From: Trypanosoma brucei
Lineage: Eukaryota
Direction of reading: 5' to 3'
Length of the DNA stretch: 64,000 nt
Assembly (NCBI GenBank): GCA_000002445.1
Contig: CM000207.1
Location: 736,001 to 800,000, forward strand
Below the pieces are notes generated by a model. The model was not told where the DNA came from. It made no database searches and saw only the letters and a program-made list of their open reading frames with translations. Shown here piece after piece: positions 3,926 through 17,841 of this stretch. A program made the position numbers and the translations under genes. Every line of letters starts with the position of its first letter. Within the stretch, counting starts at the first letter, position 1.

Positions 3926-6022
3926 ATGGGAATGTACGTCACTAAGCTTCTCTCCCTCTGGAGTCACTGGTTTGAGGTGGATGACGAGGTGATCATTGCG
4001 AGACAAAAGTTTGGGCCACTTGCTCACATTTGTGGACCAGCGGAGGGCGAAAACTGTTCACCTGTTTACCGCTCCATAGGAGTCACAGATGAGGAGCAGG
4101 CGCGCATTACGAGGGAATGGTATTACGGCGAGCACTTTCTGAAACAGTTGGAGCAAACATGCACGAGCAGAAGAGATACTCTGGCAGTTGCTTACCGCAC
4201 AATTAACAAGGTTGAAAAGGAGTGGCGCGAGGACCATAATGGGAAGAGGCGCGAATGGCAGGTTACACATCTCAACGATCCGGTCTACATGACATATGGT
4301 GAATTATGGGAGAACTCTGTGGCCTTTGGAAAGGGTTTAAGGGAGTATGGAGCAAAGGAAGGGGACCGTGTTGCCATTTACGAGGATACGCGATGGGAGT
4401 GGCTTGCCTCTGCTATTGGGGTTTGGACGCAGTTGATGGTTACTGTAACAGTTTACGCTAACCTCTGCCGGGAGGGGCTGATGCACGCGCTCAAGGAGAC
4501 GGAGTGTGCCGCTATTATTTGCAACGGCCAAAACATAAAGGATCTCATTACCTTACTGAAGGAGGTCAATCTCACCAACACCACGTTGGTCTATCTCGAC
4601 TCTCTACCAGATGGGTTAAATGATGAAGGCATGCGCTTAATACCATGGAAACAGGTGCTGGAGACGGGAATGAAGAGTAACCTGGGCTATACCATTCCTG
4701 GAAATTGTGACACAACGGCTTTGATCATGTACACAAGTGGCACAGTGGCGGCACCCAAGGGTGTCATGCACACCTTTGGTTCTCTCACCGCCAGTAAAAA
4801 TGGGCTGGCGGACCGCTTCCTTGAGTGTATTGGACCCAAGGAGGAGGGTGAGACATATGTATCTTACCTCCCCCTTGCTCACATTTTGGAGTTTATTGCT
4901 GATGTGGTGATGCTTAGCCGCGGTACCTTGGTGTGTTTTGGTTCGCCACGAACACTCACGGATGATACGGCGCGACCACGAGGTGACTTGAAGGAGTTTA
5001 AGCCAGTGTTTATCGTTGGAGTCCCACGGATCTTTGAGACAATACGGAAGGTTGTGGAAAGTCGGCTACCACCTGTGGGTAGTTTTAAGAGGACCCTCTT
5101 TGATACTGCCTATGCTGACCGACTCCGTGCTCTCAAGGAGGGGAAAGATACGCCTTTCTGGAATGAAAAGGTTTTTAAGGTCCCACGCGACATGTTCGGT
5201 GGCAGGCTGCGTGGAGTGGTATGTGGTGGCGCACCTCTCGCTGACAGGACACAAGAGTTCATGCGGGTTGTCTTCGGCCTTCCGCTGGGACAAGGCTACG
5301 GATTGACAGAAACGTGCTGCAACGGAAGCATACAACGTTTGGGTGAGTTATATCCATCAGTTGGTCAACTCCTGAAAGGGGTTGAAGGGAGGCTATTGGA
5401 TACAGATGAGTACAAGCACACTGATAAGCCATTCCCGCGAGGGGAGCTCTGCCTTCGTGGGTCGTTTATGTTCAAGGGCTACTACAAGCAGGAGGCCATG
5501 AGCAAAGAAGTGTTGATTCCAGGGGGTTGGTTCCGCACGGGGGACGTTGTGGAAATTGGTGAAGATAATGCCCTGCGAGTCATTGGCCGTGTTAAGGCAC
5601 TGGTGAAGAACCTACTCGGAGAATACATTCAGCTGGAGTACCTGGAAGTGATTTACTCACAGCATCCATTGTCTGCCCCTAATGGCGTCTGCATTCTTGT
5701 AAATCAGCGGCGGGCATACATATGTGCCCTTGTAATCACCGACGAGGAAAGGGCTAAGAAGTTTGCCCAAGAAAATGGAATTGGTGGAACGTGGCCCGAG
5801 ATACTTAAGGACCCGACTTTCCACCAACGTGCCGCCAAGTCGTTGTCGAATTTCGGCGCTTCAATTGGTAGAAAACCCTTTGAACTGCTCCGTCAGGTAC
5901 GTGTGATCGCCGATGAGTGGACGGCAAAGAATGGGATGCTCACTGTCTCGATGAAAATCCGTCGCAACAAGGTGGAAGAAAGGTACGGCGATGTCATTGA
6001 ACAACTTTTCAAGTATGAGTAA
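3926..6022 (+). CDS. ACS1: Long-chain fatty acyl-CoA synthetase, first copy of the tandem ACS array (most divergent)
   Basis: 698 aa ORF carrying the AMP-binding superfamily motifs: P-loop-like MYTSGTVAAPKG, YGLTET, WFRTGD, GRVKALVKN, and a C-terminal VSMKIRR lysine motif. About 45-50 percent identical by eye to the three downstream copies. The symbol follows the known order of the T. brucei ACS1-4 array. Confidence 0.85.
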   Translation: MGMYVTKLLSLWSHWFEVDDEVIIARQKFGPLAHICGPAEGENCSPVYRSIGVTDEEQARITREWYYGEHFLKQLEQTCTSRRDTLAVAYRTINKVEKEWREDHNGKRREWQVTHLNDPVYMTYGELWENSVAFGKGLREYGAKEGDRVAIYEDTRWEWLASAIGVWTQLMVTVTVYANLCREGLMHALKETECAAIICNGQNIKDLITLLKEVNLTNTTLVYLDSLPDGLNDEGMRLIPWKQVLETGMKSNLGYTIPGNCDTTALIMYTSGTVAAPKGVMHTFGSLTASKNGLADRFLECIGPKEEGETYVSYLPLAHILEFIADVVMLSRGTLVCFGSPRTLTDDTARPRGDLKEFKPVFIVGVPRIFETIRKVVESRLPPVGSFKRTLFDTAYADRLRALKEGKDTPFWNEKVFKVPRDMFGGRLRGVVCGGAPLADRTQEFMRVVFGLPLGQGYGLTETCCNGSIQRLGELYPSVGQLLKGVEGRLLDTDEYKHTDKPFPRGELCLRGSFMFKGYYKQEAMSKEVLIPGGWFRTGDVVEIGEDNALRVIGRVKALVKNLLGEYIQLEYLEVIYSQHPLSAPNGVCILVNQRRAYICALVITDEERAKKFAQENGIGGTWPEILKDPTFHQRAAKSLSNFGASIGRKPFELLRQVRVIADEWTAKNGMLTVSMKIRRNKVEERYGDVIEQLFKYE

Positions 6023-7435
6023 CGCGTGCGGTCAGCGAGGGATGGTGTTGTGGACCACACGTTGGGTCTGTGCTGTGGGGTTATCGCTGGGTGAATCATT
6101 TGATGGTTGCTTTTTTTTTCTTCTTTTTTTTCCCTTTTTCGACACTTTTGTGTGTCTGGGCAGTTGGTGTTGTTATGTTCTTTTTCTTTCTTTTCTTGAC
6201 TTTGGTGCCCCTCCATCCCTTATGCCCCTTGTGTTTCGTCTCTTGGTTAAATTCCGACCCTGACAGTTGTTGTTATTATTATGGTTATCACTATTTTTTT
6301 CTTTGTTGGTGACGTTGGTGGCAGGAAATGTAACACATGAAGTGAATATACCCAACAGGTAGTAAAGAAAGTGGGAGTGAGGAGCGGGGGCAGTTTCGCC
6401 AACTGCGGTGTGCACGACTGAAAATAATGGAAGAGGAAAATACAGAAAGAGAAAGTGAAAGGGGGAAAAAAAGAGGAAAACAGAAGTGTCGCTCCACTGG
6501 TGAAGTGGAACCACGAGGAAACAATATTTCTTTTCCCCCTTCCTGTCTTCAAAAAGGAGTGCGGCGCATCGAGTAGGAAATGAACGATTCAGCCACCGTG
6601 GCACCAGATGTAAAACATTGGTTTAAACAGCCGGTAGGAGACGTTTGTAAACATAATGGACGAAACATATACCTACACTACACTGATGTTAATCGTAAAC
6701 ATGGTTTGGAGTGAAGGGGTGCGTTGCATGCGGGCACAAGTTTGACAGTTATTCCTCGCTTCTTACTTTTATTTGTGTTTTCCCGCGGAGGAACGTTTTG
6801 CCGCTCAGACGGATGTTTGCGCTACTACGCGTGCGTGGCTGCATCAGTAGCAGTTATGTGAATGCCATCGATTGATTGTGTGGATTCATCGGAGTGACCC
6901 TTATGTGTGTGTGTGTCACACACTATTATTTGTGTGTGCAGTACTTCTTTGAAGTGTTTCTTGTGCTCCTCGCCCTCTGGCTTCCTTACACCCCGCTGCT
7001 TCCCCCCTTTCCCTTTCCCCTTCAACTTTTTCTTAATTCCTCTCCCGATTTGATTCTTTTTCTTTAAATATAAACGAGGGTTTTCAGTGGGTCTTACAAA
7101 CTTACCTTTTTCTTATTCCCCCCATGTCATCAGCTGTGGCCATTCGAGAATTTCGCCGTTCCCCCACTTTGTTAACTTATCTGATGTTCAGTGCCTTTCC
7201 TTCCTCGGACTTTTTTTTTTTTACAAACATTTCCTTTACATTGCCTTTAATACACGCATGCACGTTGGTATAATATGCCAACGTTCCTTTTGGTGTATGC
7301 TGCGCAACTGAACCTAGCAGAGACAAATCCAGGTCCCTTACAGCACTGCAGAAGATTGGGCAGGATTCCTCATATATATTATATATCTTACAGTATATAC
7401 GTGTATTTATTTTACACACAACACTTTTTAAAAAG

Positions 7436-9562
7436 ATGAACACCGCTTCTGCGCTGAACGAAATCGAGGTGGCGGTCCTCCAGCTTATGGATGAGGCCAA
7501 CAGCCGAGAATCGGCACCAAACGAAGACATTGTGCAGCTTCGGAGCAAAGGCTCACAGAACGAGGCGATTCCACAGACAGAAACGGAGAATATGTCGGCC
7601 ATCTACCGTCGTGCCGGAGTCAGTGGCGAAGAGCACACACGACTCTGTCGAGAGTGGTACTACGGTGTGAACATGCCACAGAAGTTCATGGCAATATGCA
7701 AGAAAGGGGGAAGTCGCAGGGCTTTCGCGTACCGGGTTCTGTCAAACATATCGAAAGAAGTGCTAAGGGACCAAAATGGGCTTGAACGTTCATACGATAT
7801 AACATACTTTAAGGAAACGTGTTATATTAACTACCGTGTCCTCTGGGAAAATATCGAGTCGTTTGGGCGAGGTCTTGTGGAGTTGGGTATTTCACCAAAC
7901 TCCCGAGTCGCCATATACGAGGAGACGCGGTGGGAGTGGTTGGCAACAATTTACGGTATCTGGTCGCAGAATATGGTTGCCACCACAGTGTACGCCAATC
8001 TTGGGGAAGATGCGCTCGCGTATGCCCTCCGGGAAACAGGATCCCGTGCAATTATATGCAACGCAACAAATGTGCCAACACTGGTCCGGTTGGTGCAGAG
8101 CAACCGCATTCCGCCCTTGGTGATCATTTACATTGGTCAGCTACCTCCGGATACAAAAAGCACACATTGCCGCATCATCTCTTGGCTTCATGTCGTGGAC
8201 AATGGTCGCCTCTCAGATGAACCACTTCGAATCCCCACTGACAATGACCAAGTTGCTTTCATCATGTATACGAGTGGTACGACGGGGGACCCCAAAGGTG
8301 TCATTCACACACATGGCTCACTGATCTCGGGTGTTACTGCTTGTGCCGACTACGTGAATGAACTGATTGGTCCTTACGAAGAGGGTGAGTCGTACTGCGC
8401 TTACCTGCCTCTTGCCCACATATTTGAATTTGGTGTCGTCAACATCTTTCTTGCTCGCGGTTCTTTTGTTGGGTTTGGAAACCCCAGAACACTTCTCGAC
8501 ACGTACACTCGTCCACACGGTGATTACAGGGAGTACAAACCGGTTTTCACAATTGGCGTGCCGCGAGTGTACGACACGATAAAGAAAACGGTCGAGTCAC
8601 AGCTGGCACCCCGAGGGACACTACAGCGCCGTATATTCGAACACGCCTTCCAAACGAGACTTCGAGCCCTCAAGAAGGGTGAGGAGACCCCGTACTGGAA
8701 CAGGTTAATTTTTTCTCCATTTCGGTCCATGCTTGGAGGTAAGATGAAAACGATGCTTTCCGCCGGAGGGCCCCTCAGCGCACCAACGCAAACATTTCTT
8801 CATGTTGTATTTGGCATCATGCCACAAGGTTGGGGCCTCACGGAGACGGTGTGTGTTGGCACAAAGCAAGTCGCAGGTGATATGGAACCGGCCGCTGCAG
8901 GCAAGCAAGAGCGCACATGTGAAATGCGACTACTGGACGTGGAAGGATACAAGCACACCGATGAGCCCGATCCTCGTGGGGAAATTCTTCTGCGTGGTCC
9001 ATTCCTCTTCAAAGGGTACTACAAGCAGGAAGAACTAACCAAGGAGGTGCTTGATGAAGATGGTTGGTTTCATACGGGTGACGTTGGCAGCATCGGCCCC
9101 AATGGAACCCTTCGCATCATTGGCCGCGTGAAGGCCTTGGCAAAGAATGTTCTTGGAGAGTATGTTGCCATGGAAGCTTTGGAATCCATGTATGCACACA
9201 ACTCGCTGAGCATGCCCAACGGTGTTTGTGTCCTCGTGCATCCTGACAGACCGTACATTTGTGCGCTTGTTCTTACTGATGAAGCGAAGGTTGTTGCGTT
9301 CACGAGGGAGCATGGATTGAAAGGTAAATACCCTGAAGTTCTGCAGGACCCCGAGTTTCAGAAGAAGGCTACAGCATCATTTCAGGAGACGGCTCGTGCA
9401 TCTGATCGACAGAAGTTTGAGATTGTACGTCACGTACGCCTACTGAGTGATGAGTGGACTCCTGAAAATGGTGTGCTGACGGCCGCAGGCAAACTGAAGC
9501 GACGCGTCATCGATGAGAAGTACACTGATACTATTGTGTCACTTTTCGTGGAGGAGTGCTGA
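7436..9562 (+). CDS. ACS2: Long-chain fatty acyl-CoA synthetase, second copy; the N-terminal two thirds are unique, one internal patch and the C-terminal third are identical to copies 3 and 4
   Basis: 708 aa with MYTSGTTGDPKGVIHTHGSL, GWGLTET, WFHTGDVG, GRVKALAKNVLGEY and AAGKLKRRV. From LLDVEGYKHTDEPDPRGEILLRG to the stop codon the protein is identical or near-identical to copies 3 and 4. Confidence 0.85.
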   Translation: MNTASALNEIEVAVLQLMDEANSRESAPNEDIVQLRSKGSQNEAIPQTETENMSAIYRRAGVSGEEHTRLCREWYYGVNMPQKFMAICKKGGSRRAFAYRVLSNISKEVLRDQNGLERSYDITYFKETCYINYRVLWENIESFGRGLVELGISPNSRVAIYEETRWEWLATIYGIWSQNMVATTVYANLGEDALAYALRETGSRAIICNATNVPTLVRLVQSNRIPPLVIIYIGQLPPDTKSTHCRIISWLHVVDNGRLSDEPLRIPTDNDQVAFIMYTSGTTGDPKGVIHTHGSLISGVTACADYVNELIGPYEEGESYCAYLPLAHIFEFGVVNIFLARGSFVGFGNPRTLLDTYTRPHGDYREYKPVFTIGVPRVYDTIKKTVESQLAPRGTLQRRIFEHAFQTRLRALKKGEETPYWNRLIFSPFRSMLGGKMKTMLSAGGPLSAPTQTFLHVVFGIMPQGWGLTETVCVGTKQVAGDMEPAAAGKQERTCEMRLLDVEGYKHTDEPDPRGEILLRGPFLFKGYYKQEELTKEVLDEDGWFHTGDVGSIGPNGTLRIIGRVKALAKNVLGEYVAMEALESMYAHNSLSMPNGVCVLVHPDRPYICALVLTDEAKVVAFTREHGLKGKYPEVLQDPEFQKKATASFQETARASDRQKFEIVRHVRLLSDEWTPENGVLTAAGKLKRRVIDEKYTDTIVSLFVEEC

Positions 9563-10612
9563 TGAATGGTGCGGATCTCCATGGGGCGGTCTATTAATTG
9601 TGTTTGTGATGTTAATCAGTTCCTATTGTCCATCTGAATTGTCCTCTCTACACGTTCCATTATCTGTTTTCCGTCGGTCCAACTTCTTGATGCTGGTGGC
9701 GACAGCTTGCACGACAGGTTGTAAGCGTTAAGGCATGCAGGGTTGGTTTTGCAGCACGGGGGAGGGTATTGAAATACGTAATTTTTCCTAGTTGATACAT
9801 TTGATTACACTTGGTTTTGTTGTAGTGACTCTGTTTATTTACTTATTTTTCGCATAGGGGGATCCGATAGTGCAGACAACACGGTGTGCAAGTCGAGAAA
9901 CCCAAGTTACACCTGTATGCTCGTTTTCACGGGGTTGTGTATGCGTGAGTGCTATTTATTGGGTAACAGAGTCACCCTGCTGTTGCCTTTTTTCTTCCGC
10001 TTCGGGTGTTGGGGATTCTTCTTTTATCATTATTATTGTTATCCTCTTTTTTACTTGTTTTTAATTTTTGGCTTACGGTCAGGAGATTACTTACCCCCCT
10101 CCCCATCCAGTGGTTTTCCACATTGTCTAACTCACCGTAGGCCTTAGGCGCTTTGACATGATTTTCCATTCGCCCCTCCTGTGCACTTATGTCCGCGTCC
10201 CGTTACTTCTCACTCGTGCACTGTGCCTCGGTGCGATTCTTCCATTGTTTGTTTTTATTGACTACAAGTTTTTGTGGAAGGTTTCTTATAACATAAGCAA
10301 CTTAGGAATCACTGAGACGCATTGGCACACATTTCCCACCGCATCCCTCCCCTTGCTGTAGTCTTGTGTTGTTACGAGTGCCAGATGTTTGACCATCCAA
10401 TATGTACGACAATGACATCTGACCGCGGCACGTACGGGATCTGAAGGGGATTATCATGACAGCTGCAACCCGTAAATGTATGCTCGCTGATCCTGGTGCG
10501 CGTGTCTGTATGTGTGTAGGTTGCGCATCCTCAATAGTTACGAACCTTCATATTTCCCATTTCTTGTCATCTCGCGAGCACAAACCCTGGAGGCCACAGG
10601 TTAACCGCGTAC

Positions 10613-10698
10613 CTGTTATTGCTTTTTTCCTCTGTTTTCCTTCTGTTCTTCCCATCTTCGTCACGCCCCTCCTCATTTCTCTATCTTGCTTGCTACGA
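10613..10698 (+). promoter_or_regulatory. Polypyrimidine tract, candidate trans-splicing signal, upstream of ACS3; an identical copy at about 14112-14197 lies upstream of ACS4
   Basis: A long C/T run (gcttttttcctctgttttccttctgttcttcccatcttcgtcacgcccctcctcatttctctatcttgcttgc) on the coding strand about 250 nt before the ATG. Confidence 0.45.
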
Positions 10699-10941
10699 TA
10701 GCCATACCAAAAGACTGTAAAGCACAACCGCTCTGCAACAAGCACTAAGGGAAGAAAGACAGGTGATTGTGGATACGGTTGAACCTGAAGGGAAGGGAAG
10801 CAATCGGGACAGCAGTGGTGCGCGCCACGTGTGTTTGTGGGAGGAAGGCTTGTTAAGGTTGGCGAAATCATCTTAAAAGCCACCATTCACACCCAGTAAG
10901 TATTGTACTTCATAGGAAGCCTTTGCTTTTAAGATCCGATA

Positions 10942-13068
10942 TTGAGAAGTGGGGGCACCATGGGGGGATGTGTGATTTCCGTCATGGACTACATGAACAA
11001 TCGCTCTGAGGTTGAGAATGAGCATGTGAAAAAATTTCGTGCGCTTGGCAAGGTTGCTGTCCCTGTGCCCGGCAGCGAAACTTCTGATTGCTCTCCCATC
11101 TACCGTCTCGTAACTGACGACGGCAAAGATATTGAAGAGGTGCGGCGGGAGTGGTACGAGGGTGAGTGCCTTCCGCAGCGCTTCGCAGCCCTTTGCAAGC
11201 GTCAACCCAAGCAGCGTGCCCTTGCCTACCGCCCAGTGGATCGGGTAGAAAAGGCTGTAATTAAGGATCTGCACACGGGAACAGAGAAGACAGTGAACGT
11301 AACACATTTCAAGGAGACGAAATACCTTGACTACGGCACCTTCTGGGACTACATCGAGTCGTTTGGGCGAGGTCTCGTGGAGTTGGGTATTTCACCAAAC
11401 TCCCGAGTCGCCATATACGAGGAGACGCGGTGGGAGTGGTTGGCAACAATTTACGGTATCTGGTCGCAGAATATGGTTGCCACCACAGTGTACGCCAATC
11501 TTGGCGAAGATGCGCTCGCGTATGCCCTCCGGGAAACAGGCTGCAAGGGGATCATTTGCAATGCGAAGAATGTGAGTGTTGTTATTAAATTCATGAGTGA
11601 AGGCATCACACCTTCCGCACCCATCATCTACAATGGGAGCCTTCCTGCCTCTGTCGACCAGGAGGCCTGCCATCTCGTATCGTGGGAGGAAGTTGTGAAA
11701 CTTGGTCGTGAGGCCCGTGACCGGCTTCCGTTGAACAACTCTGGAAGGGCAGATGACCTTGCTCTCATCATGTATACGAGTGGTACGACGGGGGACCCCA
11801 AAGGTGTCATTCACACACATGGCTCACTGATGTCGGGAGTTCATGCACTTGACCACAGGCTGAACGAGGTAATGGGTTGCCATGTTAAAGGGGAAACATA
11901 CTGCGCTTACCTGCCTCTTGCCCACATTTTGGAGTTAGGAGTCGTTAACATCTTCATTGCCCGCGGTGCACTGATATGCTTTGGAAGCCCCTTTACACTG
12001 ACTGACCTCACTGCAAGGCCCCGTGGTGACCTAGCAGAGTACAATCCATCACTTTTAATTGGCGTACCGCGCATATACGATACGCTGAAGAAGGCAATTC
12101 AGGCGAAACTGCCGGCTCCTGGCACGTTCAAGCGTCGTGCTTTTGACCATGCCTTCCAGAGCCGCTTGCGTGCCTTTAAGGATGGCAAAGATTCGCCGTA
12201 CTGGGATGCGAAGGTGTTTGCAGCTACCCGTGCCGTTTTGGGGAAGGGAATACGAATTGCTTTGTCCGGCGGAGGCCCTCTGAGTACAGCCACACAAGAT
12301 TTTGTTAATGTGGTTCTGGCTCGCACGATTCAAGGTTGGGGCCTCACGGAGACGGTGTGTGTCGGAGGTGTTCAGTTTACAGGCGATATTGAAACCGGTG
12401 CTGTTGGACCCCCGCTGCTATCGGAGGAAGTGAAACTACTGGACGTGGAAGGATACAAACACACCGATGAGCCCGATCCTCGTGGGGAAATTCTTCTGCG
12501 TGGTCCATTCCTCTTCAAAGGGTACTACAAGCAGGAAGAACTAACCAAGGAGGTGCTTGATGAAGATGGTTGGTTTCATACGGGTGACGTTGGCAGCATC
12601 GACCCCAATGGAACCCTTCGCATCATTGGCCGCGTGAAGGCCTTGGCAAAGAATGTTCTTGGAGAGTATGTTGCCATGGAAGCTTTGGAATCCATGTATG
12701 CACACAACTCGCTGAGCATGCCCAACGGTGTTTGTGTCCTCGTGCATCCTGACAGACCGTACATTTGTGCGCTTGTTCTTACTGATGAAGCGAAGGTTGT
12801 TGCGTTCACGAGGGAGCATGGATTGAAAGGTAAATACCCTGAAGTTCTGCAGGACCCCGAGTTTCAGAAGAAGGCTACAGCATCATTTCAGGAGACGGCT
12901 CGTGCATCTGATCGACAGAAGTTTGAGATTGTACGTCACGTACGCCTACTGAGTGATGAGTGGACTCCTGAAAATGGTGCGCTGACGGCTGTGGGAAAAC
13001 TGAAGCGACGCGTCATCGATGAGAGGTACACTGATATCATAGCACCACTTTTCGTGGAGGAGTGCTGA
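10942..13068 (+). CDS. ACS3: Long-chain fatty acyl-CoA synthetase, third copy
   Basis: 708 aa with the same AMP-binding motifs. Over 95 percent identical to copy 4 by eye; the differences sit in a few short patches (for example GCHVKGETYCAYLPLAHILELGVVNIFIARG). Confidence 0.85.
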   Translation: MRSGGTMGGCVISVMDYMNNRSEVENEHVKKFRALGKVAVPVPGSETSDCSPIYRLVTDDGKDIEEVRREWYEGECLPQRFAALCKRQPKQRALAYRPVDRVEKAVIKDLHTGTEKTVNVTHFKETKYLDYGTFWDYIESFGRGLVELGISPNSRVAIYEETRWEWLATIYGIWSQNMVATTVYANLGEDALAYALRETGCKGIICNAKNVSVVIKFMSEGITPSAPIIYNGSLPASVDQEACHLVSWEEVVKLGREARDRLPLNNSGRADDLALIMYTSGTTGDPKGVIHTHGSLMSGVHALDHRLNEVMGCHVKGETYCAYLPLAHILELGVVNIFIARGALICFGSPFTLTDLTARPRGDLAEYNPSLLIGVPRIYDTLKKAIQAKLPAPGTFKRRAFDHAFQSRLRAFKDGKDSPYWDAKVFAATRAVLGKGIRIALSGGGPLSTATQDFVNVVLARTIQGWGLTETVCVGGVQFTGDIETGAVGPPLLSEEVKLLDVEGYKHTDEPDPRGEILLRGPFLFKGYYKQEELTKEVLDEDGWFHTGDVGSIDPNGTLRIIGRVKALAKNVLGEYVAMEALESMYAHNSLSMPNGVCVLVHPDRPYICALVLTDEAKVVAFTREHGLKGKYPEVLQDPEFQKKATASFQETARASDRQKFEIVRHVRLLSDEWTPENGALTAVGKLKRRVIDERYTDIIAPLFVEEC

Positions 13069-14440
13069 TGAATGGTGCGGATCTCCATGGGGCGGTCTAT
13101 TAATTGTGTTTGTGATGTTAATCAGTTCCTATTGTCCATCTGAATTGTCCTCTCTACACGTTCCATTATCTGTTTTCCGTCGGTCCAACTTCTTGATGCT
13201 GGTGGCGACAGCTTGCACGACAGGTTGTAAGCGTTAAGGCATGCAGGGTTGGTTTTGCAGCACGGGGGAGGGTATTGAAATACGTAATTTTTCCTAGTTG
13301 ATACATTTGATTACACTTGGTTTTGTTGTAGTGACTCTGTTTATTGCTTTGGCTGTGCTTGTTATATTGTGCAGACAACACGGTGTGCAAGTCGAGAAAC
13401 CCAAGTTACACCTGTATGCTCGTTTTCACGGGGTTGTGTATGCGTGAGTGCTATTTATTGGGTAACAGAGTCACCCTGCTGTTGCCTTTTTTCTTCCGCT
13501 TCGGGTGTTGGGGATTCTTCTTTTATCATTATTATTGTTATCCTCTTTTTTACTTGTTTTTAATTTTTGGCTTACGGTCAGGAGATTACTTACCCCCCTC
13601 CCCATCCAGTGGTTTTCCACATTGTCTAACTCACCGTAGGCCTTAGGCGCTTTGACATGATTTTCCATTCGCCCCTCCTGTGCACTTATGTCCGCGTCCC
13701 GTTACTTCTCACTCGTGCACTGTGCCTCGGTGCGATTCTTCCATTGTTTGTTTTTATTGACTACAAGTTTTTGTGGAAGGTTTCTTATAACATAAGCAAC
13801 TTAGGAATCACTGAGACGCATTGGCACACATTTCCCACCGCATCCCTCCCCTTGCTGTAGTCTTGTGTTGTTACGAGTGCCAGATGTTTGACCATCCAAT
13901 ATGTACGACAATGACATCTGACCGCGGCACGTACGGGATCTGAAGGGGATTATCATGACAGCTGCAACCCGTAAATGTATGCTCGCTGATCCTGGTGCGC
14001 GTGTCTGTATGTGTGTAGGTTGCGCATCCTCAATAGTTACGAACCTTCATATTTCCCATTTCTTGTCATCTCGCGAGCACAAACCCTGGAGGCCACAGGT
14101 TAACCGCGTACCTGTTATTGCTTTTTTCCTCTGTTTTCCTTCTGTTCTTCCTATCTTCGTCACGCCCCTCCTCATTTCTCTATCTTGCTTGCTACGATAG
14201 CCATACCAAAAGACTGTAAAGCACAACCGCTCTGCAACAAGCACTAAGGGAAGAAAGACAGGTGATTGTGGATACGGTTGAACCTGAAGGGAAGGGAAGC
14301 AATCGGGACAGCAGTGGTGCGCGCCACGTGTGTTTGTGGGAGGAAGGCTTGTTAAGGTTGGCGAAATCATCTTAAAAGCCACCATTCACACCCAGTAAGT
14401 ATTGTACTTCATAGGAAGCCTTTGCTTTTAAGATCCGATA

Positions 14441-16567
14441 TTGAGAAGTGGGGGCACCATGGGGGGATGTGTGATTTCCGTCATGGACTACATGAACAAT
14501 CGCTCTGAGGTTGAGAATGAGCATGTGAAAAAATTTCGTGCGCTTGGCAAGGTTGCTGTCCCTGTGCCCGGCAGCGAAACTTCTGATTGCTCTCCCATCT
14601 ACCGTCTCGTAACTGACGACGGCAAAGATATTGAAGAGGTGCGGCGGGAGTGGTACGAGGGTGAGTGCCTTCCGCAGCGCTTCGCAGCCCTTTGCAAGCG
14701 TCAACCCAAGCAGCGTGCCCTTGCCTACCGCCCAGTGGATCGGGTAGAAAAGGCTGTAATTAAGGATCTGCACACGGGAACAGAAAAGATGATGAACGTA
14801 ACACATTTCAAGGAGACGAAATACCTTGACTACGGCACCTTCTGGGACTACATCGAGTCGTTTGGGCGAGGTCTCGTGGAGTTGGGTATTTCACCAAGCT
14901 CCCGAGTCGCCATATACGAGGAGACGCGGTGGGAGTGGTTGGCAACAATTTACGGTATCTGGTCGCAGAATATGGTTGCCACCACAGTGTACGCCAATCT
15001 TGGGGAAGATGCGCTCGCGTATGCCCTCCGGGAAACAGGCTGCAAGGGGATCATTTGCAATGCGAAGAATGTGAGTGTTGTTATTAAATTCATGAGTGAA
15101 GGCATCACACCTTCCGCACCCATCATCTACAATGGGAGCCTTCCTGCCTCTGTCGACCAGGAGGCCTGCCATCTCGTATCGTGGGAGGAAGTTGTGAAAC
15201 TTGGTCGTGAGGCCCGTGACCGGCTTCCGTTGAACAACTCTGGAAGGGCAGATGACCTTGCTCTCATCATGTATACGAGTGGTACGACGGGGGACCCCAA
15301 AGGTGTCATTCACACACATGGCTCACTGATGTCGGGAGTTCATGCACTTGACCACAGGCTGAATGCTGTAATGGGACCGTTGCGGGATGGAGAAACTTAC
15401 CTGTCTTACCTGCCTCTTGCCCACATTTTGGAGTTAGGAGTGCTAAGCGTATTCATTGCCCGCGGTGCACTGATATGCTTTGGAAGCCCCTTTACACTGA
15501 CTGACCTCACTGCAAGGCCCCGTGGTGACCTAGCAGAGTACAATCCATCACTTTTAATTGGCGTACCGCGCATATACGATACGCTGAAGAAGGCAATTCA
15601 GGCGAAACTGCCGGCTCCTGGCACGTTCAAGCGTCGTGCTTTTGACCATGCCTTCCAGAGCCGCTTGCGTGCCTTTAAGGATGGCAAAGATTCGCCGTAC
15701 TGGGATGCGAAGGTGTTTGCAGCTACCCGTGCCGTTTTGGGGAAGAATATGTACATGGTTTTGTCCGGCGGAGGCCCTCTGAGTACAGCCACACAAGATT
15801 TCCTCAATGTTGCAGTCGTTCGTATAATTCAAGGTTGGGGCCTCACGGAGACGGTGTGTGTCGGAGGTGTTCAACTTACAGGCGATATTGAAACCGGTGC
15901 TGTTGGACCCCCGCTGCTATCGGAGGAAGTGAAACTACTGGACGTGGAAGGATACAAACACACCGATGAGCCCGATCCTCGTGGGGAAATTCTTCTGCGT
16001 GGTCCATTCCTCTTCAAAGGGTACTACAAGCAGGAAGAACTAACCAAGGAGGCAATAGATGAGGATGGTTGGTTTCATACGGGTGACGTTGGCAGCATCG
16101 GCCCCAATGGAACCCTTCGCATCATTGGCCGCGTGAAGGCCTTGGCAAAGAATGTTCTTGGAGAGTATGTTGCCATGGAGACGTTGGAATCCATGTATGC
16201 ACACAACTCGCTGAGCATGCCCAACGGTGTTTGTGTCCTCGTGCATCCTGACAGACCGTACATTTGTGCGCTTGTTCTTACTGATGAAGCGAAGGTTGTT
16301 GCGTTCACGAGGGAGCACGGATTGAAAGGTAAATACCCTGAAGTTCTGCAGGACCCCGAGTTTCAGAAGAAGGCTACAGCATCATTTCAGGAGACGGCTC
16401 GTGCATCTGATCGACAGAAGTTTGAGATTGTACGTCACGTACGCCTACTGAGTGATGAGTGGACTCCTGAAAATGGTGTGCTGACGGCCGCAGGCAAACT
16501 GAAGCGACGCGTCATCGATGAGAAGTACACTGATACTATTGTGTCACTTTTCGTGGAGGAGTGCTGA
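14441..16567 (+). CDS. ACS4: Long-chain fatty acyl-CoA synthetase, fourth copy
   Basis: 708 aa. Its N-terminus is identical to copy 3, with variant patches GPLRDGETYLSYLPLAHILELGVLSVFIARG and LGKNMYMVLSGGG. Its last ~30 residues are identical to copy 2 rather than copy 3. Confidence 0.85.
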   Translation: MRSGGTMGGCVISVMDYMNNRSEVENEHVKKFRALGKVAVPVPGSETSDCSPIYRLVTDDGKDIEEVRREWYEGECLPQRFAALCKRQPKQRALAYRPVDRVEKAVIKDLHTGTEKMMNVTHFKETKYLDYGTFWDYIESFGRGLVELGISPSSRVAIYEETRWEWLATIYGIWSQNMVATTVYANLGEDALAYALRETGCKGIICNAKNVSVVIKFMSEGITPSAPIIYNGSLPASVDQEACHLVSWEEVVKLGREARDRLPLNNSGRADDLALIMYTSGTTGDPKGVIHTHGSLMSGVHALDHRLNAVMGPLRDGETYLSYLPLAHILELGVLSVFIARGALICFGSPFTLTDLTARPRGDLAEYNPSLLIGVPRIYDTLKKAIQAKLPAPGTFKRRAFDHAFQSRLRAFKDGKDSPYWDAKVFAATRAVLGKNMYMVLSGGGPLSTATQDFLNVAVVRIIQGWGLTETVCVGGVQLTGDIETGAVGPPLLSEEVKLLDVEGYKHTDEPDPRGEILLRGPFLFKGYYKQEELTKEAIDEDGWFHTGDVGSIGPNGTLRIIGRVKALAKNVLGEYVAMETLESMYAHNSLSMPNGVCVLVHPDRPYICALVLTDEAKVVAFTREHGLKGKYPEVLQDPEFQKKATASFQETARASDRQKFEIVRHVRLLSDEWTPENGVLTAAGKLKRRVIDEKYTDTIVSLFVEEC

Positions 16568-16572
16568 TGAAT

Positions 16573-16573
<1 letters not shown>

Positions 16574-16634
<61 letters not shown>

Positions 16635-16640
16635 CGTGTG
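16574..16640. repeat. (GT)n microsatellite of about 28 perfect units plus an imperfect GC-interrupted tail, directly after the ACS4 stop codon
   Basis: Direct read: atggtgtgtgtg...gtgtgcgtgcgtgtg. The spurious ORF 16518..16748 translates it as repeated CVCV. Confidence 0.95.
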
Positions 16641-17841
16641 TTTATTTATTTTATCATTTATCTTTGGATTTCTTTGCCTTCTGGCTTTTTGTGGTTAACA
16701 TGTAAGTTTACTGCTCTAATATCTTACATTTTAAGTATACTTTCCTAGTCTGTTTTTTTTTTGTCCTGGCAGCATTCTTATTCGGTGCCCTTATGGTTGT
16801 TAAAGTTTGGGAAGAGGAATAGGCGAAAATCTTTTGTTCACCGTAGTCACTTTATATTCAGTTGAGGAAATCGTCGCATCACCACAAATTCTCATTTTTT
16901 GTTTAACCTTGATAACCCCACCTTGTTGTCGTGGTACGTTAAAACATGTGTTTTCAATGTTTTGTTCAGGGTCGTTGCCTTTGAGAGGTGAGCCTGTACA
17001 TTTGTTGCTTGTGGGCGAATGACTGATGCTGTTGTTTTCTATATATTGGCAAACAAACGGTTTCTTCTGCATGTGCTGTGCTCTTTTCTATTACTTCTAC
17101 TGTTTGGATGTGTGTGAAGGGTTGTTTCTTCTTTTCGTTGTTGTTTTTGTCTGTGGCGCAGTCGACAGGAGGGGCTTGGTGGAAGCCGTTTTGTTTTTTT
17201 GCCTGTGAACCCTCCGCCGTTTTGTTGGTAATTGTTTTCCTTTTTTTGTGGCGTGCAGTCTGCCCGTTATTATAATTGTGACCGAGGCTTTGTCTTAACG
17301 GGCTTGCAAGTATTAGTGGAGTTTCTATTTAATGCTTCCCCCCGTTTGTTCTGTGACGATGTTTTGCCACTGTTTGTAATTAATTTCATTAACGTGAGAT
17401 CGTCTGCCTTCTTTGTGTTTTCACTTGCATGCGGCAGTGTCCGTGCTTATGATTTTGAGGCGCGCAAGGTTGTGCATTTAATGTCATTCCTTTTTTTTTT
17501 TAAACGTCGCCACCTTTCCCCGTCCTGTAACGTGTTGTCTTTCTGCAGGGTGATTAGTTATAGCTGAGCAGACGACCCTGTTTCTCAGCTGTCAAGCATC
17601 AAGGCGGAAGGAGTAGAAGCCCTTTCATTGAACAGACACGCTGCGGTGGGAGATCATTCGTTCACTGCCATATTTTTTGCTCCTATAGATTTACCCCTTC
17701 GCTTGTCTTTGCGTGCTAACGCAAGCACAGCGCTGTTGGGGGTGGGGGAGCAAGTAGTGAGAGGACTGCGGAATAATACCAGAGAAGGCGCAACAGAGGA
17801 GCACCGGGCCCATCGAAAGGTGACAACCCCAAACGATAGGA

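Follow-up and report, generated by a model that had tools for sequence, protein, structure and literature searches.

In the 64-kb window of the Trypanosoma brucei genome analysed here (the whole stretch of 64,000 nucleotides), the tandem fatty acyl-CoA synthetase genes ACS3 and ACS4 evolve in concert with two surviving islands of divergence, a conclusion that is well supported. Recurrent gene conversion or unequal exchange, mutual and, in the C-terminal domain, also with the neighbouring paralogue ACS2, appears to have made ~90% of both genes and their 5′ flanks near-identical, synonymous sites included. By contrast, aa 302-331 (island 1), aa 430-456 (island 2) and residue 473 seem to have escaped homogenisation and to keep an old divergence. 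Island 1 corresponds by motif to the fatty-acid Gate domain of long-chain acyl-CoA synthetases. Island 2 is predicted to form a strand-helix-strand unit that precedes the Gly-rich loop LSGGGPL and the A5/adenine motif GWGLTET, whose glycines and aromatic residue would, as in homologues, line the acyl pocket. The favoured explanation, given a probability of about one half, is that the islands persist through selection against conversions crossing them: such conversions would have been removed, the variants giving somewhat different fatty-acid handling through tunnel shape, gating or kinetics.

Distribution of the ACS3/ACS4 differences

The gap-free alignment of ACS3 and ACS4 contains differences at 78 of 2109 nucleotides (96.3% identity) and at 34 of 702 residues (95.2%). 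The original prediction, made from the sequence of this stretch, held that the differences fall in a few short clusters. This is correct for the 48 of 78 nucleotide differences that lie inside 11850-12360 (18.9 expected), and none of 5000 permutations reached the observed maximum per 511-nt window, the coefficient of variation of the gaps, or the count of gaps of 3 nt or less. It overlooks the other 30 nucleotide and 11 residue differences, the latter located at aa 111-112, 147, 532-533, 548, 575 and 674-696; the C-terminal domain holds the majority of these 30 nucleotides. The peptides quoted for the two copies are right, both for the first patch (GCHVKGETYCAYLPLAHILELGVVNIFIARG in ACS3 versus GPLRDGETYLSYLPLAHILELGVLSVFIARG in ACS4) and for the second (GKGIRIALSGG...FVNVVLARTIQ versus GKNMYMVLSGG...FLNVAVVRIIQ). 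The differences form sub-clusters at 303, 307-310, 315-316 and 329-331 in island 1 and at 430-434 and 449-456 in island 2, with 13 substitutions in the Gate region, 10 near the Gly-rich and A5 strands and F473L in addition (Table 1).

Two likenesses had been proposed for the first patch. That of copy 3 to copy 2 is real at 315-316 and 329-331 (5/6 codons identical), but the state is ancestral, being found also in the T. congolense orthologue and in outgroups. That of copy 4 to copy 1 extends to 3 of the 13 island-1 positions (P307, S316 and V331), all of them common family states, and is thus weak.

A small cluster outside the islands, at aa 107-112 (11278-11293), reads TGTEKTV in ACS3, TGTEKMM in TREU927 ACS4, and TRAEKMM in T. 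b. gambiense ACS4 and T. equiperdum. The confidence of the AlphaFold2 (AF2) model, expressed as predicted local distance difference test (pLDDT), is lower at block 101-110 (76).

Gene-conversion mosaic

The last ~640 nt of the ACS2, ACS3 and ACS4 coding sequences are 98-100% identical, and the ACS3/ACS4 differences that remain in this part are alternately shared with ACS2. ACS3 equals ACS2 at most differing codons of 12553-12817 (with an exception at 12601), while ACS4 equals ACS2 at all differing codons of 12979-13045, a pattern that plainly points to exchanges with ACS2 as the source of the C-terminal differences. Block identities to ACS2 jump from 41-72% to 97-100%. The ACS3/ACS4 unit, 3.5 kb long and 97.4% identical, ends 9 nt past the stop codon, so that ACS3 and ACS4 share their 5′ flanks but not their 3′ flanks; 3′ flanks are shared by ACS2 and ACS3.

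Conversion appears to be ongoing, judging from strain-specific variants common to both copies: at positions 11226 and 11376 the two TREU927 copies have C, and T is found in the two DAL972 copies of T. b. gambiense and in the T. equiperdum gene. The ACS2 and ACS4 proteins of T. congolense have species-specific residues in common (e.g. RVTESFQETARLAERQKFEC) in blocks that are homogenised in T. brucei (alignment columns ~200-260 and 560-765), suggesting that homogenisation took place independently there and is recurrent in both species. The proposal that gene conversion homogenises these paralogues is thus borne out by synonymous divergence (dS) of 0-0.018 beside the islands, by strain variants shared between copies and by the mosaic with ACS2.

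Trypanosome expression is largely set by 3′ untranslated regions (UTRs). The 3′ flanks of ACS3 and ACS4 differ, and the near-identical genes may be regulated differently; differential regulation may be a separate, non-exclusive reason for the presence of two genes.

Age and stability of the islands

Segmental values of dS and of non-synonymous divergence (dN), obtained as Nei-Gojobori estimates for ACS3 versus ACS4, are listed in Table 1. In the islands, dS exceeds the flanking values 25- to 65-fold. The 48-nt core of island 1 has 56% identity between ACS3 and ACS4, which resemble each other there no more than either resembles ACS1 or ACS2, and the 33-nt core of ACS4 island 1 is unique in the window, even at 3 mismatches. 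These values fit islands of retained old divergence, the rest having been recently overwritten. At aa 1-130 and 200-260, where the paralogues vary most, ACS3 and ACS4 have 100% identity, an indication that the islands retained are not just those segments that evolve fastest.

Across T. b. brucei, T. b. gambiense and T. equiperdum (ACS4-type sequences from all three, ACS3 from two), 63 sites are fixed as ACS3-type versus ACS4-type, almost all island sites included. The T. equiperdum OVI locus (CM010680.1, 2966-12109; compare 3926-16567 of the window) contains ACS1, ACS2 and one ACS3/4-type gene, with ACS4-type islands and ACS3/ACS2-type states at 12554-12558 and 12681-12684; either a copy was lost by unequal crossover or a repeat was collapsed.

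When the single T. congolense orthologue is taken as outgroup, at the protein level, 15 changes are ACS3-specific, 11 are ACS4-specific and 8 are ambiguous, so that both copies are derived. ACS3 kept the ancestral CA and N330 and acquired CHVK, GIRIA and T456. In ACS4, LS, S330, Y432 and L449/V453/V454 are new, and A452 is not polarisable. At aa 432 (12253-12255 / 15752-15754), R432Y in ACS4 echoes an alternation among kinetoplastid ACS sequences (76 R and 24 Y, n = 117). At aa 454 (12319-12321 / 15818-15820), 110 of 117 family members have Gly, ACS3 and T. congolense have Ala, and ACS4 has Val.

Table 1. Genes, islands, exchanged tracts and predicted structural elements of the ACS array, with nucleotide positions in the window and residues numbered from the ATG
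Feature	Position (nt)	Strand	Codons or residues	Description
ACS1	3926-6022	+		first in the array and diverged (45-46% aa identity); converted tracts not detected
ACS2	7436-9562	+		exchange partner for C-terminal third and 199-bp block; island-1 state (CA, VVNI) as in ACS3
ACS3, Tb927.9.4210	10960-13068	+	702 aa	exact match to XP_803725.1 / AAF19439.1; PF00501, E 5.8e-75
ACS4, Tb927.9.4230	14459-16567	+	702 aa	exact match to XP_803726.1 / AAF19440.1; PF00501, E 6.3e-75
Island 1, ACS3	11863-11952	+	302-331	27 nt differences in 90 nt; dS 0.80, dN 0.29; E303 at helix end; CHVK at 307-310; CA at 315-316; invariant Y-LPLAH-IL-E-L-G-V; VNI at 329-331
Island 1, ACS4	15362-15451	+		A303, PLRD, LS, LSV
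Island 2, ACS3	12247-12327	+	430-456	21 nt differences in 81 nt; dS 0.46, dN 0.27; GIRIA before LSGGGPLS; V449, V452, L453, A454, T456 before IQGWGLTET
Island 2, ACS4	15746-15826	+		NMYMV; L449, A452, V453, V454, I456
F473 (ACS3) / L473 (ACS4)	12376-12378 / 15875-15877	+	473	isolated; 5 residues past post-A5 pocket positions 467-468
N-terminal segment			1-301	dS 0.012, dN 0.005
Between islands			332-429 (98 codons)	dS 0, dN 0; no difference
After island 2			457-531	dS 0.018, dN 0.006
C-terminal domain			532-702	dS 0.108, dN 0.026; ACS2 mosaic
C-terminal block	12435-13077 = ACS2 8929-9571 = ACS4 15934-16576	+		~98% identical, homogenised
199-bp tract	11342-11540 = ACS2 7842-8040 = ACS4 14841-15039	+		97.5% to ACS2; surroundings 41-72%
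ACS3-ACS4 intergenic	13069-14440	+		98.6% identical to ACS2-ACS3 intergenic 9563-10941 (1.38 kb)
ACS4 3′ flank	16577-17841	+		unique; without similarity to ACS2 and ACS3 3′ flanks
AF2 helix			287-305	E303A at its end
AF2 loop			306-312	CHVK / PLRD (307-310)
AF2 strand			313-316	CA / LS (315-316)
AF2 loop (YLPLAH)			317-322	no variant positions
AF2 helix			323-335	VNI / LSV (329-331)
AF2 strand			433-436	variants 433, 434
AF2 helix			443-452	variants 449, 452
AF2 strand			456-460	variant 456

Identity of the genes

ACS1-ACS4 are four tandem plus-strand open reading frames (ORFs) coding for AMP-binding enzymes, and all long ORFs in the window lie on this strand, in the manner of a trypanosomatid polycistron. 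As called, the ACS3 and ACS4 ORFs begin at an upstream TTG (10942 for ACS3); the ATG starts were adopted, giving the residue numbers used here, and an ACS4 coordinate equals that of ACS3 plus 3499. The four proteins are exactly the T. b. brucei TREU927 fatty acyl-CoA synthetases 1-4 (XP_803723 to XP_803726), and ACS1, ACS3 and ACS4 are also identical to GenBank AAF19437, AAF19439 and AAF19440. They are thus the T. brucei ACS1-4 genes already published (2000; Jiang & Englund 2001; Jiang et al. 2004), at 100% protein identity. Already on record are the genes and their organisation in tandem, the identity of 95% between ACS3 and ACS4 and the activities measured for the recombinant proteins (review PMC9719944), as is the ATP- and CoA-dependent activation of C14-C17 fatty acids by the identical proteins (Jiang & Englund 2001, via PMC9719944).

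By sequence and fold, ACS3 and ACS4 are ANL-type long-chain acyl-CoA synthetases. PF00501 is matched with 252.9 bits (ACS3) and 252.8 bits (ACS4) against a cut-off of 29.9, and the AF2 model (pLDDT 91.8) predicts the two-domain ANL fold. The top Foldseek matches are adenylation domains (A-domains) of carboxylic acid reductases (CARs), FadD13, 4CL and luciferase (E 1e-40 to 1e-30), and sequence and fold searches of the PDB gave no solved relative closer than the bacterial CAR A-domains (~22% identity). Both proteins carry the P-loop YTSGTTGDPKG at 272-282, the A5/adenine motif QGWGLTET at 458-465, and the fatty acyl-CoA synthetase (FACS) signature DGWFHTGDVGSI(D/G)PNGTLRIIGRVKA at 536-561, inside which D548G falls. 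At this position (DGWFHTGDVGSI-D/G-PNGTLRIIGRVK), ACS3 has D548 (12601-12603) and ACS4 has G548 (16100-16102), as do ACS2 and ACS1; in E. coli FadD, the FACS signature motif reportedly modulates fatty-acid specificity.

ACS3 and ACS4 (10960-10974 and 14459-14473) and the T. congolense orthologue start with MGGCV, and ACS2 starts with MNTAS. The MGGCV sequence is a candidate signal for N-myristoylation (Gly2) and palmitoylation (Cys4), which would agree with a report of ACS3 being purified from membranes of the bloodstream form.

Position of the islands relative to the Gate domain and acyl pocket

The islands were placed on known acyl-CoA synthetases by motif alignment via FadD13, luciferase, 4CL and the published ACSL4 peptide. 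The phmmer alignment to the Thermus thermophilus long-chain FACS (ttLC-FACS, 1ULT) covers the C-terminal part only, and the list of tunnel residues is taken from secondary sources (PMC12051732, PMC6122825). The Gate domain of long-chain acyl-CoA synthetases has the consensus D-x4-(Y/F)-LPLAH-x2-E (PMC1543647). The corresponding motif in ACS3 and ACS4 is E312-TYCA/TYLS-Y317-LPLAH-IL-E325, with a conservative E for D and both copies of the Y type. The location of the patches in a substrate-gate region, as presumed in the original prediction, therefore holds for island 1 by motif; the canonical pocket and gate positions are however identical in the two copies, and residues 307-310 lie in a predicted loop.

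The ACSL4 peptide 316-IGYLPLAHVLEL-327 includes tunnel residues, and V324, L325 and A329 are the ACSL4 tunnel positions of this region, A329 corresponding to ttLC-FACS L236 at the tunnel's distal end (PMC12051732). In the register of this peptide, V324, L325 and A329 align to I323, L324 and V328 of ACS3/ACS4, and the gate residue Trp234 of the Thermus enzyme corresponds to L326 by motif alignment, consistent with the FadD13 alignment. The helix that holds V328 continues directly with the variable residues 329-331, I331V lying one turn (i+3) beyond V328. A universal alignment index (PMC6122825) was also tried: it would equate ACS3 329 with index 381 (the FadD10 Trp touching the omega-carbon), but the paper's His columns are off by 1-2 here, and the placement was rejected as exact and holds only to within one residue. 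Residues 307-310 match the stretch before the Gate motif of the mammalian alternative exon, whose first half is its least conserved part (PMC1543647), and in the predicted model this loop probably does not line the tunnel.

In ttLC-FACS, G301, Y324, G325 and T327 line the myristoyl pocket (PMC6122825), and these align to G437, W460, G461 and T463, respectively, of ACS3/ACS4. Residues 452-456 run into the A5 strand. By alignment to luciferase and 4CL, L435 sits at the position of Stachelhaus 299 and 4CL K303. Variable residues 431 and 433, at i-4 and i-2 of L435 on the strand, probably share its face. In primary sequence the islands adjoin these pocket and tunnel positions, and variant side chains may contact the acyl chain.

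Comparison with known systems

A parallel is found in mammalian ACSL1 and ACSL6, which contain mutually exclusive exons for the 26-residue ‘fatty-acid Gate domain’ (Soupene & Kuypers, PMC1543647, PMC2868784). Exchange of the Gate exon in ACSL6 shifts activity ~10-fold (PMC2868784), and the same authors pointed out that other organisms can encode the two Gate versions in separate genes (PMC1543647, PMC2868784). The exons belong to the same family and cover the same variable segment as island 1, a poorly conserved stretch followed by x4-(Y/F)-LPLAH-x2-E. By contrast, the T. brucei variants are two genes, both with Y-gates (Y317 is invariant), the F/Y switch is absent and the motif begins with E, not D; moreover, island 2 (430-456) has no counterpart in the exon swap. 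By analogy, ACS3/ACS4 would be a gene-level counterpart of ACSL1/ACSL6 Gate-exon switching, if the islands are functional.

Compared with T. thermophilus LC-FACS (1ULT/1V25/1V26) and human ACSL4 (PMC12051732), in which W234 equals L326 and L236/A329 equals V328 by motif alignment, ACS3 and ACS4 have the gate Trp replaced by Leu, as in eukaryotic ACSLs. The aligned tunnel positions are identical in both copies, the differences being their neighbours (329-331, 431-434 and 452-456).

The ANL specificity codes (the Stachelhaus code of nonribosomal peptide synthetases and the 12-residue code of 4CL) sit in the A4 helix, the strand before the Gly-rich loop and the strand before A5. According to the alignments to FadD13, luciferase and 4CL, the ACS3/ACS4 islands occupy the same three sequence neighbourhoods. 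The code-aligned residues are however invariant, and the differences lie 1-6 residues off, where they could be second-shell or deeper-tunnel positions.

Tandem arrays of T. brucei were surveyed by Jackson (2007, PMC1855330), with array 82 annotated as ‘fatty acyl CoA syntetase’ (Ks 1.20, Ka 0.36). In the accessible part of that survey, this array is among those with partial conversion and shared or unshared UTRs, the duplicates evolving in concert yet diverging; the statistics given there are array-wide, and that part says nothing about structure at the level of islands or how it relates to the active site (PMC1855330). Description of the ACS3/ACS4 differences as two old Gate/pocket islands in a conversion mosaic was not found in the accessible literature, although the original 2000 paper may note it.

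Selection and alternative explanations

Selection against conversions that cross the islands is favoured because the islands lie at the Gate domain and the pocket strands, because fast-evolving parts of the genes have been homogenised, and because the cassette swap in ACSL6 has so large an effect on activity. Several observations weigh against it. The ratio of dN to dS (omega) is 0.36-0.59 inside the islands and, being below 1, gives no signal of positive selection. The canonical residues H322, I323, L324, L326, V328, L435, G437, G459-T463, C467 and V468 are identical in both copies, and the densest sub-cluster of differences, 307-310, is in a predicted loop. The closeness of differences to pocket anchors (11 of the 34 within ±5 residues, 2.4 expected, circular-shift p about 0.03) speaks for selection, but this enrichment is modest and the anchors were picked by the analyst. 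The persistence of the islands between subspecies is a weak test, since those compared are only ~0.4% diverged. The 2001 abstract reportedly gave ACS3 and ACS4 similar specificities (C14-C17). The specificities of ACS1, 3 and 4 are described as ‘distinct but overlapping’ (PMC9719944).

In the main rival explanation, the islands are neutral relics: heteroduplex over a ~45%-mismatched patch would be rejected or restored by mismatch repair, and conversion tracts would stop at the patch or skip it. Such relics would account for synonymous differences that are as concentrated in the islands as the non-synonymous ones, as reflected in omega, for the unchanged canonical pocket residues and for the overlap in reported specificities. 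At 11865, T is present in TREU927 ACS4 and C in gambiense ACS4 and in ACS3, an island edge that differs with the strain, as expected of tract ends that abut the patch. Random erosion, however, would leave relics anywhere, yet the variable N-terminus and aa 200-260 are fully homogenised, and what remains adjoins catalytic and pocket motifs. The 98 inter-island codons are likewise homogenised, though tracts had to end inside them on both sides. Neutral persistence is rather unlikely, while being the most serious competitor of selection.

Alternatively, ACS3 and ACS4 could stem from a very recent duplication, the islands having been brought in as cassettes by short-tract ectopic conversion (from ACS2, LACS5 on chromosome 10, or others). 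Differences in the C-terminal part clearly have this origin, five of the six ACS3 codons in 315-316 and 328-331 equal those of ACS2, and ACS4 island 1 shares R309, D310, S316, L329 and S330 with LACS5 (compared at the protein level). The window nevertheless contains no donor for ACS4 island 1 at 3 mismatches or fewer, and none was seen for sub-islands 1a, 2a and 2b, which have 24-63% identity to ACS1 and ACS2. The states shared by ACS3 and ACS2 are ancestral, as judged from the T. congolense orthologue and outgroups, and the unique derived states in both copies (CHVK, GIRIA and T456 in one; PLRD, LS, Y432 and AVV in the other) would call for at least two unknown donors. Import is improbable for most sub-islands.

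Still less probable are bursts of adaptive point substitution in young copies under recent positive selection. In sub-island 2a (5 codons) dN is much greater than dS, and both lineages are derived with respect to T. congolense. The high island dS speaks against such bursts, as do the many codons that differ at 2-3 positions, some of them purely synonymous: silent and replacement changes occur in the same codons, and point mutation in a young duplicate would not pile silent changes into the same 30 codons. A misassembly or chimera of collapsed repeats, to which 3.5-kb repeats at 97% identity are prone and with which the single ACS3/4 gene of the T. equiperdum assembly would agree, can practically be dismissed, as the independent T. 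b. gambiense DAL972 assembly shows both island haplotypes with the gene order unchanged, and AAF19439 and AAF19440 carry them too, leaving no room for the chimera that the original prediction had named as a possible refutation.

Two further origins of the islands were considered and rejected. For a compensated frameshift, introducing gaps improves the alignment little (the pentamer GTTGC shared in island 1a, offset by 4 nt, is within chance), and the other frames contain stops or encode unrelated peptides. For a micro-inversion, the reverse complements of the islands match worse than the forward strand.

If selection does preserve the islands, its object may be described in several ways. It is possible, if doubtful, that ACS3 and ACS4 represent two swappable ‘tunnel cassettes’ kept as separate genes, in which selection holds ~23 residues apart (the Gate domain and two pocket strands) and conversion resets the rest. 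The narrower proposal of the original prediction, under which the islands maintain distinct specificities for chain length, is plausible rather than proven, and is somewhat less likely again. A functional difference could also lie in unsaturated substrates, Km, gating or stability.

Implications

The genes, their identity and biochemistry, divergence islands in converted paralogues as a phenomenon, and mammalian Gate swapping are already known. What is added here, relative to the accessible literature, is a modest refinement: the differences between ACS3 and ACS4, and the age of these differences, are connected with the Gate and pocket elements. If the islands are neutral relics, the case merely illustrates the conversion resistance of mismatched patches. 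If they are functional, it would be a clean case of selection working against gene conversion in a tandem array of a trypanosome, and ACS3/ACS4 would provide a very small, ready-made set of substitutions that tune fatty-acid handling by a eukaryotic long-chain acyl-CoA synthetase. The pair would then amount to a minimal map, provided by nature, of what determines fatty-acid preference or gating in these eukaryotic enzymes; such a map would be useful because the PDB searches gave no solved relative of the pair nearer than the bacterial CAR A-domains. The enzyme class matters for the supply of myristate to glycosylphosphatidylinositol (GPI) anchors in bloodstream trypanosomes.

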